A DNA stretch of 32,000 bases from assembly GCF_000247565.1 (NCBI RefSeq), contig NC_016893.1, positions 630,001-662,000 of the forward strand, read 5' to 3'. Origin of the DNA: Wigglesworthia glossinidia endosymbiont of Glossina morsitans morsitans (Yale colony) (GTDB lineage Bacteria > Pseudomonadota > Gammaproteobacteria > Enterobacterales > Enterobacteriaceae). How positions within the stretch are numbered: position 1 is the first letter of the stretch; each line of letters starts with the position of its first letter. Positions 3,982-17,406 of this stretch are shown here, piece after piece. The notes beneath the pieces are model-generated. The model saw nothing but the letters and a program-made list of their open reading frames with translations, searched no databases and was not told where the DNA came from. The translations under genes were made by a program, and so were the position numbers.

Positions 3982-4632
3982 TTAACATAATTTAATAGAA
4001 TGAAAAAAATTAATGTTTTTTTTTTCTATCATTAAAAATTTTTTACAATTTTTAATTAAAATTGGCAAAATCATATTTAAATTAATTTTAGGAAAAAATT
4101 CACTTATTTGTGTCATTTTTATATTAGCATTACCGCACGGATATATATATGAAAAAGGAGATAAATCCATTTTTACGTTTAATGCTAATCCGTGTAAAGA
4201 ATAACCTTGATAAATTCTTAATCCTAAAGAACAAATTTTTTTATTTTGTACATATACTCCTGGATATCCTTTAATAAGATAACTGTAGATTTTAAAATAT
4301 AATAATGTAGAAATAACAATTTGTTCTAAAATTAATATTAATTGTTTAATTCCAATTTTTAATTTTTTAACATTTAATAAAAAATATATAACTTGTTGTC
4401 CTGGAGCATGAAAAGTTATATGACCTCCGCGATCAGTTTTAATTACTGGAATGTTAGATATATAAGATGCTTGAAATTTATCCAAATTACCTAAAGTGAA
4501 TACCGGATAATGCTCTAGAAACCAGATTTCGCTTACATGATTTATTTTATTTTTATTAATATAATTATACATAGCATGCAATATATGCTCGTATTTGTGT
4601 ACACCTAGTAAACGAATATTAGTTGTATTCAT
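3982..4632 (-). CDS. lipB: Octanoyl-[ACP]:protein N-octanoyltransferase
   Basis: LipB motifs are present: WFLEHYPVFTLG, TDRGGHITFHAPGQ, and PCG near the C-terminus. It sits immediately downstream of dacA and upstream of lipA, as in E. coli. An in-frame A10 tract (sense strand) lies at 4016-4025. Confidence 0.9.
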   Translation of the reverse strand: MNTTNIRLLGVHKYEHILHAMYNYINKNKINHVSEIWFLEHYPVFTLGNLDKFQASYISNIPVIKTDRGGHITFHAPGQQVIYFLLNVKKLKIGIKQLILILEQIVISTLLYFKIYSYLIKGYPGVYVQNKKICSLGLRIYQGYSLHGLALNVKMDLSPFSYIYPCGNANIKMTQISEFFPKINLNMILPILIKNCKKFLMIEKKNINFFHSIKLC

Positions 4633-5994: not shown

Positions 5995-7107
5995 TTATAA
6001 TTTTTGAGATAACATTGTTTTATGTGTATTAATTGATATTATTATGCCGAATCCAGACATTAAAGCAATTAATGCAGATCCACCGTAACTCATTAAAGGT
6101 AGTGGCACACCAACGATAGGCAATATACCGCTTACCATACCGATATTCACAAAAATATAAAAAAATAAAGTTAACATCAAACTTCCAGTCATTACTCGGC
6201 AAAAAGTATTTTCTGCTTGCATAGCAATAATTAATCCTCTAATTATTAGAATAAGATATAATAATAATAATATAACACTTCCAATAAATCCAAATTCTTC
6301 TCCTAAAACAGAAAAAATAAAATCTGTATGTCTTTCGGGTAAAAATTCTAATTGAGATTGCGTACCTGATAACCACCCTTTTCCATATAATCCACCAGAT
6401 CCGATAGCAATTTTTGATTGCAAAATATGGTATCCTGCACCTAAAGCGTCTAATTCAGGATTTAATAAAATTTTCACACGATCTTTTTGATAGTCATGCA
6501 TAAAAAATTTCCACAATAATGGCACTATACAAGTTAAGATACATATACAATATATGATAAATTTTTTTTTCATTCCAGATAAAAATAGAACAAATATTCC
6601 AGAAAAAAAAATTAAAATTGCTGTCCCTAAATCTGGCTGTATTGCAACTAATATGGAAGGAATTAAAATTAAAAAAAAAGAAATACTAATGTCTTGCAAA
6701 GAAAGAGGAATATTTGCACGATTTACTAATCTAGAAATCATTAATGGAACTGCAATTTTAGCTATTTCAGCTGGTTGAAATTGTAAAATGCCTAAATCTA
6801 ACCATCTCTTTGCTCCTTTACTGATTTTTCCAAAGCTGTCAACTGAAACAAGCAACAAAATACAGATAAAATATAAATAAGGTGCTAATTGTTCATATTT
6901 ATTAGGAGTAATATAACTAAGCAAAAACATAATTAAAATTCCAATACTTATTTGAATTATTTTTTTTTGAGTAATTTCCACATTTTTACCACTAGCACTC
7001 CAAATGAGTAAAATACTATATAAAAGCAGTATAACGATGACTGTTATAAATATAAAATCAATATGAATTTTTCTATAAAAAGAATTTTTATGAAAATTAA
7101 TAAACAT
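5995..7107 (-). CDS. mrdB: SEDS-family peptidoglycan glycosyltransferase RodA
   Basis: At 370 aa it is the same length as E. coli RodA. Conserved blocks include RWLDLGI.QFQP.EIAKIAVPLM, QPDLGT, LPE.HTDFIF, PLPL.SYGGSA. It sits directly downstream of mrdA. Confidence 0.93.
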   Translation of the reverse strand: MFINFHKNSFYRKIHIDFIFITVIVILLLYSILLIWSASGKNVEITQKKIIQISIGILIMFLLSYITPNKYEQLAPYLYFICILLLVSVDSFGKISKGAKRWLDLGILQFQPAEIAKIAVPLMISRLVNRANIPLSLQDISISFFLILIPSILVAIQPDLGTAILIFFSGIFVLFLSGMKKKFIIYCICILTCIVPLLWKFFMHDYQKDRVKILLNPELDALGAGYHILQSKIAIGSGGLYGKGWLSGTQSQLEFLPERHTDFIFSVLGEEFGFIGSVILLLLYLILIIRGLIIAMQAENTFCRVMTGSLMLTLFFYIFVNIGMVSGILPIVGVPLPLMSYGGSALIALMSGFGIIISINTHKTMLSQKL

Positions 7108-7133: not shown

Positions 7134-8986
7134 TTATTTTTTTAACAAAATGTAATCTAATATTTTACGTACGATTTTCCCAGAAGAAATGTGTTCTTCC
7201 CCATTTTCTAATATTAGCACAATACAAACTGTTGGTTTTTCAAATGGAGCAAATGCAGTCATTAGTTTATGATCTCGAAATTTTTCCGATACTTTACTCG
7301 GATCATATATTTCATATGGCTGCAAGCTAAATACTTGCGCTGTTCCAGATTTGGCTGCTACTTTATAAGGTGCATCATAAAAATTCCTATATGCTGTACC
7401 ATTAGATCGATTTGCAACTCCATACATACCATTTTTTACAATATCCCAAAAAACAGTACGAGAATCTCCTATTTGTGCATATGAATTTTGGTGATAGTAA
7501 GTAACCGAATAACTATCTTCTTGAATAGAAGACAATAAATGCGGTGTACGTACTAATCCGTTGTTTACTAAAGTCATGAGTGCTTTTGATATTTGTATTG
7601 GTGTTGCAGTCCAGTATCCTTGTCCTATACCTACTGAAATTGTATCTCCTTGATACCAAGGTTGTTTGATATGTTTTATTTTCCATTCACGATCTGGCAT
7701 AATCCCTATATTCTCTTCGAACAAATCAATACCTGTACTCTGTCCATATCCAAATTTTTTCATCCATTCAGATAATTTATCAATTCCCATATTATATGCA
7801 ACTTGATAAAAAAAAGTATCTGCTGATTCTTCTAGCGCTTTAGTAATATTCAAATATCCATGACCCCATTTTTTCCAATCACGATAAATTTTTTCTGATC
7901 CTGGTAGTTTCCACCATCCAGGATCAAACAAAAAAAAGTTTGTACTGATACTTCCTGAATGCAATGCAGAAATAATAACATATGGTTTAATCGTAGACGC
8001 TGGAGGATACATACCTTGAGTAACACGATTGACAAAAGGACGATTAATATCGTGTGTTATTTTTAAATATTTTTTGTTTGATATGCCATTAATAAATATA
8101 TTAGGATCGTAACTTGGATTAGAAACTAATGCAAGTATTCCTCCGTCTCTAGGATCTAATACTACCACTGCAGCGCGCATAGAAGATATTAATTGTTTAA
8201 TATATCTTTGCAAATTTAAATCTAACGTTAAAGTAATATTTTTTCCTGATTTTGGTGGAGAAAAACGTAATTGTCGAATAATTTTTCCTCTACTATTTAT
8301 TTCTACTTCTTTAAAACCAGGTTGTCCATGCAATTTTTTTTCATAAAATTTTTCAATACCTAATTTTCCTATTTCTTGATTTTTGAAATAATCTAAAAAT
8401 TCTTTTTTATACTGCAATTTTTTGAATTCAGAATAATTGATTTTTGATATATATCCAATTACATGTGCTATTTCTGATCCATATGGATAATATCGGCGTT
8501 GATAGTTTTTTATTGATACGCCGGGAAAACGGTATTGATTCAAAAAAAATTTAGTATATTGAACGTCTGTAAGTTCCGATTTAATAAGCACGTTATTTAA
8601 GTAATTAGATTTTTGTTTTTCTTTTTCAAAAAACAAAATATCTGATTCATTTAAATCTAATACAGATTTTAATTCATTTATTGTATGATTAATATTTTCT
8701 ACTTGCTTTAAATTAATTTCTAATTGATAAATAGTACGATTTATTGCTAATACAATACCATTACGATCTAAAATTGTACCTCTTGTAGGAGGGACAGATA
8801 TAAATTTAATTCGATTAAAATTAGATTTGTTATGATATGTAGAAAAACAAGAAATTTGTAGATAGTACAGATTAAAAATTAAAATTCCAGTAAATAATAT
8901 AATAAAAAAAAAGATATTATAATACGATTTAAAAAAATTTTTGATTCAATAAAATATTGCTTATAATAATTTAATTTATCTTTCAT
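7134..8986 (-). pseudogene. mrdA: Penicillin-binding protein 2 (elongasome transpeptidase), reading frame interrupted at a poly(A)9 tract; possibly functional via slippage
   Basis: ORF 7134..8636 covers only the PBP2 portion from about residue 130 onward (STIKP active-site SxxK, KSGTAQ). The same frame stays open upstream without any ATG, GTG or TTG until a stop at 8946-8948, encoding FFFIILFTGILIFNLYYLQ...NRIKFISVPPTRGTILDRNGIVLAINRTIYQ. An ATG at 8986 in a different frame encodes MKDKLNYYKQYFIESKIFLNRIIISFF. Joined, the two parts align continuously with remembered E. coli PBP2 (MKLQNSFRDYTAESALFVRRALVAFLGILLLTGVLIANLYNLQ...). The frames switch inside A9 at 8904-8912, and one extra A restores a 617-aa product. 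Confidence 0.9.
8904..8912 (-). repeat. A9 homopolymer (A on both the given + strand numbering and, as T/A complement, the sense tract of mrdA mRNA reads U/A-run) marking the mrdA frameshift site
   Basis: Hand-indexed: a8904-a8912 on the + strand, flanked by t8903 and g8913. On the mrdA sense (-) strand this is a T9 run within tct ttt ttt tt|att. Confidence 0.85.
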
Positions 8987-9166
8987 ATTTATATTTATTT
9001 TTTCATAAAATATTAAATATTCCTATTTAATATTATATTTGTATTGAAAATTATAATACGTTATTGTAAATATAATATATATACTGATATTTTCAATATC
9101 TAAGAGTATTTATATAAAAAAAATTATAAATTCACTTTTATATTTAAACTAAAATATTTATTTTAA

Positions 9167-9799
9167 TTATTTATCAGAATATAATTTTTTTTTAAAAATA
9201 TATTTTTGCACCGAAGTTGCAATTAAACCATTACAAGACATTCCAAAATGACATCTTAAACGAATAATGCTAGATGATATGTTCCAAACCGGCGTTAACG
9301 CATAATAAATTAATCCGCAGGGAAGATAATGCAAAATATCCGGATGAATTTTATTTAATTTTGGATTACATATATATTTTGAGCGCGAACATACTATAAG
9401 ATGACAGAAATTAATTAATTCTAATCCTCTATACCAATTTGGAAGATTTAAAAAAGAATCTTGACCTAAAATAAATCCAATAGGTTTATATGGACCGTAT
9501 TCGCAACGAATATTTTTAAAAGTATTGAAAGTCCAAGATGGCATAAGATCACGCACTTCTCTATAATCTATCTTAAAAATATTTTCTGGAATTTCAGATA
9601 TAGCGAGTTGTATCATATTTATACGATCTTCTATAGAAGTTTTTGGCATATTTCTATGCACAGGAATTCCATTAGGCAATAAAATAATTTTATTGAGACG
9701 AACTAATTTCGCAATAGCTATTGCAGATTGGACGTGTCCATTGTGAATAGGATCAAAAGTACCTCCGTAAAAAGCAATTAAAGTTGATTTTTTTTTCAT
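9167..9799 (-). CDS. nadD: Nicotinate-nucleotide adenylyltransferase
   Basis: The nucleotidyltransferase motif GGTFDPIHNGH is at the N-terminus. It is positioned downstream of holA as in E. coli. The gene begins ATG followed directly by an A9 tract (9788-9796). Confidence 0.9.
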   Translation of the reverse strand: MKKKSTLIAFYGGTFDPIHNGHVQSAIAIAKLVRLNKIILLPNGIPVHRNMPKTSIEDRINMIQLAISEIPENIFKIDYREVRDLMPSWTFNTFKNIRCEYGPYKPIGFILGQDSFLNLPNWYRGLELINFCHLIVCSRSKYICNPKLNKIHPDILHYLPCGLIYYALTPVWNISSSIIRLRCHFGMSCNGLIATSVQKYIFKKKLYSDK

Positions 9800-13932: not shown

Positions 13933-14368
13933 AACAAATGGAGTCCTATAACTCAATTTGAAAAAGTTATTGATTTTTTATTGTCTTAATAAGAATTTTT
14001 GTTTTACATAAACAAGATGTGATAAAATTTGAAAATTAAAAAATTTTTATATTAACTGTATATTGTTTATTATTCGTACAATTATTTTCAAATTTTTACT
14101 TCAAATTTTTTCTTAAAATTTAATTTTAAAACAATTTATATAAATTATATTAATAATATTTTAAAACAAAATCAATTATAAAACTGTTATATTTTATATA
14201 TTAATTTAATTTTACAATTATTGAAAAATTTTAAAAAGTATATAATTAATTCTTTTTTGAATTTAAAATATATTTTTATAAGTTTTTTTAATAAAAATTA
14301 AATATAATATTTATTAAATAATAAAGTAAAATTTATATAAATTAATCTATGTTAATTGAATTATTAAA

Positions 14369-15097
14369 ATGCATATTTTTAGAATATATCACTCACAAGA
14401 ATTAAGTTTAAATAAAACTATTATTATATCTGATCAATCTATGAATTATTTAAAAAATGTTTTAAGAATGAAATTAGGAAATTTAATAAAATTATTTAAT
14501 AACAAAAATCAAGAATATCTCGGAAAAATCGTAAAATTTGATAATAAAAAAATATATATTTGTTTAACAAAAAAAATACATAGTAATGTTGAATCTCCTT
14601 TAAAAATATATTTGGGACAATCAATTTGTAATAGAACGAGCATGGAGTATATTTTTCAAAAATCTGTAGAATTGGGTGTATATGAAATTACACCTTTATT
14701 TTCAGAACATTGTTACATAAATGGTAATCATTATCAAATAAAAAATAAAATGAAACGTTGGAAAACGATAGTTATTCATGCTTCGCAACAATGCGGTCGA
14801 AAATCTTTGTTAAAGATTAACTGTCCTATGTCAATGTTAGAATGGTGTAAGAAAAAAAATAACATCTTAAGCATTTACACTGATCTTCGATCAAAAAATA
14901 AAATGAACGATATTCGTAGTCATTATAATCAAGCAAGATTATTAGTAGGTCCAGAAGGAGGATTCTCTAAATACGAAAATGCATATCTTATGAAAAACAA
15001 TTTTTATAAAATCAGAATAGGCCCAAGAACTTTACGAGTAGAAACTAGTGTATTATCTGCAATTGCTTTATTACAAATGCGTTTTGGTGATTTTTAA
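14369..15097 (+). CDS. rsmE: 16S rRNA (uracil1498-N3)-methyltransferase
   Basis: MHIFRIYH...VLRM...LGQS...MEYIFQKSVELGV.EITPLFSE...LLVGPEGGFS...LGPR.LR.ET matches remembered E. coli RsmE (YggJ). It lies upstream of gshB as in E. coli. Confidence 0.9.
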   Translation: MHIFRIYHSQELSLNKTIIISDQSMNYLKNVLRMKLGNLIKLFNNKNQEYLGKIVKFDNKKIYICLTKKIHSNVESPLKIYLGQSICNRTSMEYIFQKSVELGVYEITPLFSEHCYINGNHYQIKNKMKRWKTIVIHASQQCGRKSLLKINCPMSMLEWCKKKNNILSIYTDLRSKNKMNDIRSHYNQARLLVGPEGGFSKYENAYLMKNNFYKIRIGPRTLRVETSVLSAIALLQMRFGDF

Positions 15098-15118: not shown

Positions 15119-16069
15119 TTGATTAAATTAGGAATTATTATGGATCCAATACAATCTATTCAGATCAAAAAAGATACAAGTTTTGCAATTATGTTAGAAG
15201 CGCAAAAAAGGAATTATATTCTATATTATATGGAAGTTAAAGATATTTATTATAGTAAAAGTGAAGTTTATGGAAATACAAAAATAATTTCTGTTCAAAA
15301 AAATCCAAAAAAATGGTATCAATTCAGTCATAAGAACACTATTAATTTAAAATCTTTGGATGTTATTTTAATGAGAAAAGATCCGCCGTTTGATTTACAG
15401 TTTGTTTATATAACATATATACTGGAATATTTGCACAAAAGTAAAGTTTTAATTATTAACAATCCTAAAAGTTTAAGAGATTACAATGAAAAAATGTCTG
15501 TTTTATCTTTTCAAGATGCTCCTAAAACACTAATTAGCTGTAACAAAAAATCTATTTGTTTGTTTCAAGAAGAAGTTGGAGATATAATTTTAAAACCTTT
15601 AAATAACATGGGAGGATCTTCTGTATTTTATGTAAAAAAAAACGATTTTAATACTTCAGTAATTATTGATACTTTAACTAACTATCAAAATAGTTTTTGT
15701 ATGATACAAAAATATATTCCAGAAATTATTTATGGCGATAGAAGAATTATTATTATTAATGGTATTCCTGTGCCTTATTGTTTAGTGCGTATTCCAGGAT
15801 ATGGAGAAATTAGAGGAAATTTAGCAGCTGGCGCAATTTTTAAAGTAGAATTATTAAGAAAAAGAGACTATGAAATTACATACAATATTAGTTCATTTTT
15901 AAAAAAATCAGGATTAATTTTTGTCGGTATAGATATAATCGGAAATTATTTAACAGAAATCAATATTACTAGTCCTACTGGAGTTCAAGAAATAGAATCT
16001 GTTTATCCAGTTTCAATTACTGGAATATTATTAGATAACATTGAAAAAATTTTAAATAAAAAAATGTAA
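15119..16069 (+). CDS. gshB: Glutathione synthetase
   Basis: The TTG start gives MIKLGIIMDP, identical in position to E. coli GshB MIKLGIVMDP. An AGGAG Shine-Dalgarno lies at 15107-15111 with 7-nt spacing. ATP-grasp blocks are conserved: ILMRKDPPFD, ILKPL..MGG.S.F, RGNLAAG, GLIFVG.DIIG..LTEIN.TSPT. Confidence 0.93.
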   Translation: MIKLGIIMDPIQSIQIKKDTSFAIMLEAQKRNYILYYMEVKDIYYSKSEVYGNTKIISVQKNPKKWYQFSHKNTINLKSLDVILMRKDPPFDLQFVYITYILEYLHKSKVLIINNPKSLRDYNEKMSVLSFQDAPKTLISCNKKSICLFQEEVGDIILKPLNNMGGSSVFYVKKNDFNTSVIIDTLTNYQNSFCMIQKYIPEIIYGDRRIIIINGIPVPYCLVRIPGYGEIRGNLAAGAIFKVELLRKRDYEITYNISSFLKKSGLIFVGIDIIGNYLTEINITSPTGVQEIESVYPVSITGILLDNIEKILNKKM

Positions 16070-16259
16070 TAATTTTTGATATTTTTAAAAAATTACTGTA
16101 GAGTACACAATATCTCTATAATCTAAATAAAATTTTTTGATAAAAATTTAATTAAAACTTGATAAAGCTAATAATAAATTATATAAAATTAAATAAACAT
16201 GTTAATCAAAAAAAATTTTTAATCTCACAACAAATATATATTCATCAAAGGTAAAAATA

Positions 16260-16679
16260 ATTAAAAATATTTTTTTAATAGGATTTGATTTTGGTACTGA
16301 AAATATCGGTGTAGCTATCGGTCAGACAATTACTTGTACGTCTAAACCGCTAAGTTGTATAAAATCTATCCGTGGAATTCCAAATTGGAAAAAAATTTCA
16401 GAAATTTTTCAAATATGGCATCCAAACGCTATCGTTGTCGGACTACCGCTGAATATGGATGGAAGTACACAAAAAATTACAATTTATGCAAAAAAATTTG
16501 CACAAGAACTAAGAAAAAAGTTTATCATACCAGTCAATATGCAAGACGAACGTCTTACTACAATAGAAGCAAAATCTATACTATTTAATGTTCAAGGATA
16601 TCGAGGATTGAAAAAAAAACTCATAAATTCGCAATCTGCCGCTATTATTTTAAATAGTTGGATGCAAAACATGAATTGA
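16260..16679 (+). CDS. ruvX: Putative pre-16S rRNA nuclease / Holliday-junction-resolvase-like protein YqgF; start codon non-canonical (proposed ATT)
   Basis: The frame is open from 16206. It encodes (I)KNIFLIGFDFGTENIGVAIGQ...IVVGLPLNMDGSTQK...DERLTTIEAK...SAAIIL, collinear with remembered E. coli YqgF ([21 protein letters not shown]...). The ORF track lists only the ATG at 16455, which would delete the conserved N-terminal half. There is no in-frame ATG, GTG or TTG between 16206 and 16455. ATT at 16260 lies 8 nt after aaagg (16247-16251) and gives 139 aa, against about 138 in E. coli. Confidence 0.75.
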   Translation: MKNIFLIGFDFGTENIGVAIGQTITCTSKPLSCIKSIRGIPNWKKISEIFQIWHPNAIVVGLPLNMDGSTQKITIYAKKFAQELRKKFIIPVNMQDERLTTIEAKSILFNVQGYRGLKKKLINSQSAAIILNSWMQNMN

Positions 16680-16754: not shown

Positions 16755-17377
16755 ATGAATGCTTATTTTTATATTAAATTTTTATTAAGTGCAAATAACA
16801 TTTCTGATCTTCCACAAGACAACGGATGTGAAATTGCTATTTTTGGACGTTCTAATGCTGGAAAATCAAAAGCATTAAATATTTTATTTAAAAATAATAA
16901 ATTGTCTAAAAGCAGTAAAATACCAGGAAAAACAATGTTTTTAAATGTATTTAAATTAAATAACAAATTAAGAATTATTGATCTTCCAGGATTCGGGTAT
17001 GCTAATGTATCAAAAAAAAATAAATTAAACATTGCATGTTTAATAAAACAATATTTTAGATTGCGTCAATCATTAAAAATTTTAATTTTTTTAGAAGATA
17101 TCAGGCGTTCTATATTAGATTTTGACGAAAAAATAATTCATTTAATTTTAAAAAAAAAATTCCTATTTTGTTTTTATTAAGTAAATCCGATAAAGTTTCT
17201 ACAAGTTATCGTCAATTTAAATTATTACAAGTTCAAAATTTTTTTAATTTACGCAAACACGAAATTTTTTCAGAATTTTTTTTAAGTACTTTTTCTTCTT
17301 TGAATCAAGATGGGGTAAACACTGTCAGAAAAAAAATAAATTTTTGGACAAAAACTAAGATTTTTAATACTGCTTAA
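16755..17377 (+). pseudogene. engB: Ribosome-biogenesis GTPase EngB/YihA, reading frame interrupted at a poly(A)10 tract; possibly functional via slippage
   Basis: ORF 16755..17180 carries G1 (GRSNAGKS) and G3 (DLPGFGYA) and stops 7 codons after the A-run. ORF 17168..17377, whose frame is open back through the A-run, carries [12 protein letters not shown] (G4, T/S-K-x-D) and the C-terminus. Joined as ...[20 protein letters not shown] it aligns with remembered E. coli ...[20 protein letters not shown]. The frames switch in A10 at 17150-17159, and one extra A gives a 207-aa product against about 210 in E. coli. Confidence 0.9.
17150..17159 (+). repeat. A10 homopolymer on the engB sense strand marking the frameshift site
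   Basis: Hand-indexed a17150-a17159, flanked by t17149 and t17160. Confidence 0.85.
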
Positions 17378-17406
17378 TTTTTGTTAAAAAAAATAAGTAA
17401 CTAAAT

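Follow-up and report, generated by a model that had tools for sequence, protein, structure and literature searches.

A genus-wide frameshift in a T9 tract of Wigglesworthia mrdA and its probable correction by transcriptional slippage

The mrdA locus and its two reading frames

The sequence analyzed here (the window) is a stretch of 32,000 nucleotides from the genome of Wigglesworthia glossinidia, the endosymbiont of Glossina morsitans morsitans (contig NC_016893.1, positions 630,001 to 662,000). It contains mrdA, the gene for the cell-wall enzyme PBP2, which lies on the minus strand and is divided between two reading frames that meet in a run of nine T's. All coordinates refer to the window, and ATG, GTG and TTG were counted as starts of open reading frames (ORFs). 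The 5' segment of mrdA (8904..8986, minus strand) opens with an ATG at 8986 and runs for 27 codons in frame 0 before entering the tract; it encodes MKDKLNYYKQYFIESKIFLNRIIISFF, which comprises the cytoplasmic tail and the start of the membrane anchor. The tract itself (8904..8912, minus strand; T9 in the gene, A9 on the plus strand, U9 in the mRNA and dA9 in the template) is the candidate recoding site that joins the two frames. Past T9, frame 0 reads LLYYLLEF and ends at a TAA stop (8879..8881, minus strand), and standard decoding gives a 35-aa product (ORF 8879..8986). This out-of-frame tail varies in length and sequence among lineages and thus shows no sign of a function of its own. The 3' segment (7134..8903, minus strand) lies in the -1 frame and encodes the rest of the anchor, the PBP dimer domain and the transpeptidase domain in 589 codons, followed by a stop (7134-7136). 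A stop-free stretch of this length is vanishingly unlikely to occur by chance in a genome of 24% GC, and it is orthologous to MrdA. Insertion of one T in the run creates a 617-aa ORF with the junction ...ISFFFIILF.... A preliminary description, made from the letters of the sequence alone, had placed the split inside this run, with full length restored by one extra nucleotide, and had given the ATG, the 27 codons, the frame-0 stop and about 590 further codons without additional stops; its positions agree with those found here.

The restored 617-aa protein is MrdA/PBP2. It passes the TIGR03423 (pbp2_mrdA) model with 709 bits (cut-off 455) and matches the NCBIfam MrdA model PRK10795 over residues 1-616 with 956 bits, slightly below the curated cut-off of 962, and Pfam domains PF03717 and PF00905 are found in the downstream product. 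Its alignment to E. coli PBP2 (8tj3_C, residues 5-613; E-value 2.6e-252) is gapless across the junction, as had been claimed, and the two proteins are 58% identical (P0105) and collinear from residue 6 to 615. The N-termini of 16 other enterobacterial and symbiont MrdA proteins have the same spacing, with VAFAGILLL at the position of ISFFFIILF, and align without a gap only if one nucleotide is added. Because this spacing is shared among relatives, the restoring change is +1 nt and not -2. The STIK motif with S331 (7995-7997), the SAD motif from residue 388 (7824-7826) and the KSGT motif from residue 546 (7350-7352), all on the minus strand, align to their E. coli counterparts. The predicted membrane anchor, RIIISFFFIILFTGILIFNLYYL, is coded across the frameshift and becomes contiguous only after recoding. 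Like E. coli PBP2 and RodA of the elongasome (PDB 8tj3, 6g9p), the Wigglesworthia system, with the frame restored, has a predicted anchor, pedestal/dimer and transpeptidase domains and an adjacent rodA gene; it differs in that the mrdA coding sequence is spread over two frames. The rodA gene, mrdB (5995..7107, minus strand), encodes the partner glycosyltransferase and sits 26 nt downstream of mrdA. It is intact, in line with the preliminary description (PRK10794, 561 bits; TIGR02210, 431 bits against a cut-off of 337).

Conservation of the frameshift and selection on both halves

Related loci were recovered by a scan of species-representative genomes and by exact-protein look-ups. The tract was compared in six assemblies (the window, L001, L002, L081, L082 and L083), with longer loci designated L084-L087. 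These represent four lineages: WGM, the symbiont of G. morsitans that includes the window; WGB, the symbiont of G. brevipalpis (L002/L087; BA000021, Sanger-sequenced in 2002); a single palpalis-group lineage, represented by a metagenome-assembled genome (MAG) and two Logan assemblies (L001, L082/L086 and L083/L085); and a further Logan assembly (L081/L084), whose DNA is 93% identical to that of WGM. The WGM genome was obtained by Sanger sequencing at 9.4x coverage after multiple displacement amplification (MDA).

An identical T9, flanked by ATATC and ATTAT and joining the same two frames, is present in all six assemblies and all four lineages, and T10, the frame-restoring length, is never the consensus in any of them. 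Non-Wigglesworthia MrdA homologues, among the matches listed, are all full length. The host G. brevipalpis branched off 50-80 million years (My) ago. The main new result is that the mrdA frameshift is genus-wide and ancient, predating the split of the Glossina-associated lineages; this was absent from the preliminary description, which had suggested comparing tract length among orthologs and had named a homopolymer miscall as the trivial alternative. Since six assemblies of four lineages share T9, such a miscall is excluded; these assemblies come from different technologies and include two Sanger genomes. Exact-sequence look-ups for independent morsitans-lineage assemblies, using the mrdB ORF, the N-terminal ORF of engB and the 500-aa GenBank product of mrdA, returned no records, and a search with the 90-aa restored junction peptide gave one word-index candidate and no match, and is uninformative.

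Purifying selection acts on each half of mrdA in the frame that this half uses. For the 589 downstream codons, the ratio of nonsynonymous to synonymous divergence (dN/dS, Nei-Gojobori method) is 0.045 between WGM and L084 (dS 0.25), 0.09-0.10 against the palpalis-group lineage (dS 0.6-0.7) and 0.16-0.19 against WGB (dS near saturation). These codons are free of stops in each lineage, mrdA is retained in all lineages, and the frameshift is the single lesion. The upstream 27 codons keep their ATG and remain open in all lineages, and their changes are synonymous in frame 0 (Arg21 CGT/CGA/AGA, Ile22 ATT/ATC/ATA, Ile17 ATT/ATA and Leu19 TTA/TTG). A hidden Markov model (HMM) of the N-terminus, trained on residues 1-75 of 117 MrdA proteins from outside Wigglesworthia, gave 82-89 bits for the restored junction peptides, 59-67 bits for the downstream frame extended upstream and 56-64 bits for the downstream part alone. 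The frame-0 N-terminus therefore contributes about 22-28 bits, and the order of scores is the same in 4/4 lineages. Together with the frame-0 substitutions, this order shows that the upstream ORF is the true N-terminus of MrdA. The preliminary description had argued that the gene is still used, and had listed elevated dN/dS, to be estimated for each half, and additional lesions in orthologs as signs of a pseudogene. The dN/dS of the downstream codons is low and no additional lesion was found, and the sequences indicate that mrdA is almost certainly still used. Decay to a pseudogene is excluded by the low dN/dS, the frame-0 evolution of the upstream part, the intact motifs and the intact mrdB.

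No public record flags the frameshift, and each calls an N-terminally truncated product. In the window, the downstream frame has a TGA 12 codons 5' of T9 (8948-8946), immediately followed by ATC (8945-8943; together 8943..8948, minus strand). This non-canonical ATC is the start used by RefSeq, whose 603-aa WP_330216570.1 follows the downstream frame from ATC 8945 and is 100% identical to the downstream part. The peptide that the downstream frame encodes in this region scores 21-24 bits below the frame-0 peptide in the HMM comparison. The first ATG, GTG or TTG is the TTG at 8636 (8634..8636, minus strand), from which GenBank calls a 500-aa product (AFA41425.1) that drops the anchor and 117 residues. 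The earlier statement that the downstream frame has no usable start before this TTG thus stands for canonical start codons only, as RefSeq annotates a start at ATC 8945. A UniRef (UniParc) entry for W. glossinidia, UPI001F011E68, has 583 aa, with its start not stated. Calls for the other lineages begin with an ATG directly after the run in the palpalis-group MAG (590 aa), with TTG in the Logan gene call for L084 (587 aa) and with GTG in BA000021 (WGB, 585 aa). None of the annotated starts is conserved across lineages, and those of the palpalis group, L084 and WGB cut into the anchor. Upstream of the conserved mrdA start, at about 9000-9010 (minus strand), the window has an extra ATG followed by A6, which is out of frame; in L084 the corresponding run is A7, and that ATG is in frame, 7 codons 5' of the conserved start, so that tract length differs here at a translation start too.

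Routes to full-length PBP2

Full-length PBP2 probably arises, for the most part, by slippage of RNA polymerase on T9. Under this mechanism, genomic mrdA would be permanently one base short inside the tract and yet functional. RNA polymerase would slip backwards on the dA9 template and add a tenth U in a fraction of the mRNAs, as the rU:dA hybrid of about 9 bp, being homopolymeric throughout, could re-align. The U10 mRNAs would be translated normally through ...I-S-F-F-F-I-I-L-F... into the anchored 617-aa PBP2, of which they would be the only source, and unslipped mRNAs would yield the 35-aa peptide. PBP2 is a low-abundance enzyme, and the yield of slippage would presumably be enough for it. 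The frameshifted T9 state is older than the split of the Glossina-associated lineages (50-80 My) and has been retained since. Its persistence could be understood if nine nucleotides are about the shortest slippage-competent tract, so that interruptions and length changes other than T9 to T10 would be purged, and if the change from T9 to T10 is either not favored, a lower dose of PBP2 being tolerable or useful, or offset by a deletion bias.

The surroundings of the tract point in the same direction. The site was searched for a terminator, an upstream Shine-Dalgarno (SD)-like purine stretch and an Rfam family, and none was found. RNA structure over the 90 nt downstream is weak (minimum free energy -2.2 to -4.5 kcal/mol), with a fold that differs by lineage, and the consensus structure of the alignment reaches -2.5 kcal/mol without meaningful covariation. 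As no cis-acting stimulators are found at T9, slippage of RNA polymerase with addition of one U is the preferred explanation. Such events have precedents. In Buchnera cell-wall genes and a Blochmannia histidine gene, long poly(A) runs give 12-50% corrected transcripts (PMC5009743). In Shigella flexneri, the U run between the overlapping ORFs of mxiE is read through via insertion of one non-templated U, which fuses them into a longer functional protein, a layout that mrdA shares, and programmed transcriptional slippage on 9-nt A/T runs is known from Thermus thermophilus dnaX and insertion sequence (IS) elements; selection against A/T runs also usually appears from nine nucleotides (PMC1088944).

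The closest known cases are the tract frameshifts of Buchnera and Blochmannia (Tamas et al. 2008; Wernegreen, Kauppinen & Degnan 2010; PMC5009743, PMC3017870, PMC4389277). These also come from AT-rich, reduced genomes of gammaproteobacterial insect symbionts, and they likewise consist of a single indel in a poly(A) or poly(T) run of at least 9 nt in a gene that is otherwise intact, under purifying selection and frameshifted in more than one species; in Buchnera, cell-wall genes are among the rescued cases. Wigglesworthia differs in being another genus, one in which slippage was argued to be absent, and the mrdA lesion differs in spanning the whole known genus (50-80 My), in lying only 27 codons into the gene and in a standard product of 35 aa. 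At the level of sequence, mrdA shares every feature of the Tamas/Wernegreen class. A literature search found no report of a slippage-type frameshift for Wigglesworthia mrdA.

Several observations weigh against slippage of RNA polymerase at this site. Baranov et al. (2005) found A/T runs to be equally dense in coding and non-coding sequence of Wigglesworthia, and concluded that slippage may be suppressed there (PMC1088944). A/T runs of 9 nt or more number 37 in the window. Genes hold 34 of these and average about 1.3 long runs each, with four apiece in mrdB, leuS and arnA; the frame is broken only in mrdA and engB, and the other 32 intragenic runs are in frame. Efficient slippage at every 9-mer would harm many transcripts, so the efficiency per tract should be low. 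T9 also doubles as a set of heptamers for -1 programmed ribosomal frameshifting (PRF). Finally, the nucleotide conservation of the tract is not significant as a stand-alone statistic. Among the fourfold-degenerate T sites and the TTT codons of mrdA, 29% and 73%, respectively, are invariant in all four lineages, and the probability that TCT-TTT-TTT-TT(T) stays unchanged under ordinary protein constraint is roughly 0.1-0.3. The argument thus rests on the conserved frameshift state and on purifying selection, and the noteworthy point is the persistence of the out-of-frame length rather than the conservation of the nucleotides. In the 19 kb that WGM shares with the other lineages, it has about 22 runs of 9 nt or longer, and three of them are of constant length in all lineages: the mrdA tract, one run in mrdB and one between genes. 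WGM and L084 (dS 0.25) are separated by 17 indels, of which 15 lie between genes and mostly affect 1-2 nt of an A/T run, and the two within coding sequence have lengths divisible by three. At this distance, three of four intergenic runs of 8 nt or more have changed length, in a small sample. Unconstrained tracts therefore change fast, in agreement with the Blochmannia literature, where homopolymers are indel hotspots (PMC3622351).

A different route to the same SFFFII junction would be -1 ribosomal frameshifting, programmed or tolerated, on U_UUU_UUU or U_UUU_UUA in the unedited U9 mRNA. In frame 0, T9 reads UC[U UUU UUU] and [U UUU UUA]; both heptamers, which the preliminary description omitted, are in the correct phase and conserved in all lineages, and the second is of the HIV-1 type. 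In E. coli, U_UU.U_UU.U gives more than 0.1% frameshifting without stimulators, and H_HH.U_UU.Y is efficient with them (PMC4066793). One review argues that endosymbionts, with their small translation systems, could come to correct frames efficiently by ribosomal frameshifting (PMC5009743), and the doubt of Baranov et al. about transcriptional slippage in Wigglesworthia speaks for ribosomal frameshifting as well. mrdA resembles the established -1 PRF systems (dnaX, IS911/IS3 and HIV-1 U_UUU_UUA; PMC4066793) in its conserved in-phase heptamers and in the long product coded by the -1 frame, but it has neither an SD-like element upstream nor a stable or conserved structure downstream, and even the best E. 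coli heptamers reach only about 0.3% -1 frameshifting without stimulators (PMC4066793). Moreover, the run is longer than required: all nine T's are kept, including the fourfold-degenerate third position of TCT, although a heptamer needs only 6-7, which points weakly to transcriptional slippage. A -1 shift of the ribosome also cannot supply the -1 or +2 nt needed by the engB gene of WGB (see below). On balance, ribosomal frameshifting is unlikely to be the main source of PBP2. Less likely again is that translation simply begins at another codon of the downstream frame (ATC 8945, an ATT, or the lineage-specific ATG, GTG and TTG just after the run) and is decoded in the standard way, with the upstream ORF as a relic. 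All public annotations model mrdA in this way, and the ATC-initiated product would retain the hydrophobic anchor and the lysines before it. ATC is, however, a very poor initiator codon. No candidate is conserved (ATC in WGM, TTG in L084, ATG in the palpalis group and GTG in WGB, the last three cutting the anchor), and the upstream ORF has kept its ATG and stayed open and coding-like in frame 0 over 50-80 My, unlike a relic. We therefore give this explanation little credence.

A source in the DNA itself has hardly more than a slight chance of being correct. Minority T10 genome copies, produced by replication slippage and present in polyploid cells or in the population, could supply PBP2 while assemblies show the majority T9; homopolymers are indel hotspots in these genomes (PMC3622351), and consensus assemblies cannot reveal minor variants. 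T10 should be at least as fit, however, and would be expected as the consensus somewhere over 50-80 My, whereas it is found in 0/6 assemblies, and Wigglesworthia protein clusters contain no junction-spanning protein of about 617-619 aa. The least probable reading, to the point of being negligible, is that mrdA is a slowly decaying pseudogene or that the true sequence is T10. Gene loss in endosymbionts usually starts with an indel of one base in a tract (PMC3017870), and the WGM DNA had gone through MDA before it was Sanger-sequenced. This reading is opposed by the agreement of six assemblies from different technologies, by the 589 stop-free codons of each lineage with dN/dS of 0.05-0.19, by the intact motifs and mrdB, and by the 32 other intragenic runs in the window that stay in frame.

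Slippage of RNA polymerase as the main route does not imply that the site is regulatory. In mxiE, slippage is seen as dosage control of a regulator, whereas mrdA is a housekeeping gene in a run-rich genome, and its tract may have no regulatory role and simply be a frozen lesion that the cell tolerates. It is conceivable, though doubtful, that T9 is instead a selected, programmed recoding site that keeps the dose of PBP2 low relative to that of RodA, perhaps to a degree that depends on conditions. If so, the UTP level or the speed of transcription could tune this dose, and with it the elongation and shape of the cell, in a symbiont that has few regulators of transcription; the site would be among the oldest known cellular transcriptional-slippage sites (50-80 My), and the RNA polymerase of Wigglesworthia would slip, contrary to the 2005 inference.

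The present analysis corrects the inconsistent public annotations of an essential cell-wall gene (500, 603, 590 and 585 aa, with differing starts). It would also extend slippage-dependent expression to a third genus of insect symbionts, over the whole Glossina radiation. With one tract, no flanking signals and a product of either 35 or 617 aa, mrdA offers a clean test locus, suited to measuring how far a reduced genome relies on transcriptional versus ribosomal slippage. It stands out by its age, the position of the lesion 27 codons in, its consistent mis-annotation and its bearing on the earlier claim that slippage is absent.

Other tract frameshifts and features of the window

A systematic scan of the window for frame junctions left only mrdA and engB. 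The other junctions were overlapping gene pairs (holA/nadD, arnA/arnC and arnT/arnD) or short stretches open by chance, and an apparent split of ruvX and a truncation of purA were artefacts of the ORF-start rules and the window edge, both genes being single-frame. The engB (yihA) gene encodes an essential ribosome-biogenesis GTPase. In the window (16755-17378, plus strand) it is split at A10 (17150-17159), and addition of one A gives a 207-aa protein that scores 178 bits against TIGR03598 (cut-off 124). In the palpalis-group locus L085 this run is interrupted and engB is intact; the window lesion is thus either specific to the morsitans lineage or a sequencing error. In WGB (L087, 1129-1741), engB is split at a different place, an A11 that corresponds to window 17012-17020, where both the window and L085 have A9. 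Restoration there needs -1 or +2 nt, and a single gene call, 613 nt long for 203 residues, covers the two parts. A third gene, lipB, is split at A11 in two independent palpalis-group assemblies (L085, about 14274-14929; L086, about 9128-9783), with halves 81-85% identical to the intact WGM protein (window 3982-4632); the window, L084 and WGB all have an unbroken lipB. The engB and lipB lesions are lineage-specific, unlike the ancestral one in mrdA, and the phenomenon is general in the genus.

These cases bear on how gene loss is counted. Rio et al. (2012) pointed out that, among the 11 pseudogenes of WGM, 6 carry just 1-2 indels and rescue of these might be possible, and their criterion for a pseudogene was a truncation of at least 50%, a threshold that the 500-aa GenBank product of mrdA falls short of (PMC3280448). 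In view of mrdA, engB and lipB, a gene with a single tract indel should be regarded as possibly functional when pseudogenes are counted or metabolism is reconstructed for Wigglesworthia.

Besides mrdB, the neighbors of mrdA are dacA, nadD, holA and lptE; dacA is intact, and the mrdA-mrdB arrangement is the same in L084, L085 and L087. The genes rlmH, rsfS, cobC and rlpA, which flank mrdAB in E. coli, are missing from the Wigglesworthia locus. Rfam gave no matches at gathering thresholds over the whole window. The ruvX (yqgF) gene (about 16258-16679, plus strand) is conserved in a single frame and has no ATG, GTG or TTG near its conserved N-terminus, IIKNIFLIGFDFG, which implies a non-canonical start or the loss of the start codon. 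Between gshB and ruvX, WGB carries yqgE (DUF179; L087, 2272-2835). L085 has no gene call at this position, and in the window the two flanking genes are only some 190 bp apart (16069-16258), so that yqgE appears to have been lost outside WGB. Finally, holA and nadD have ORFs with 47 nt in common (9753-9799) around an A9 run (9788-9796), and this overlap is either real or the result of an over-extended nadD start.

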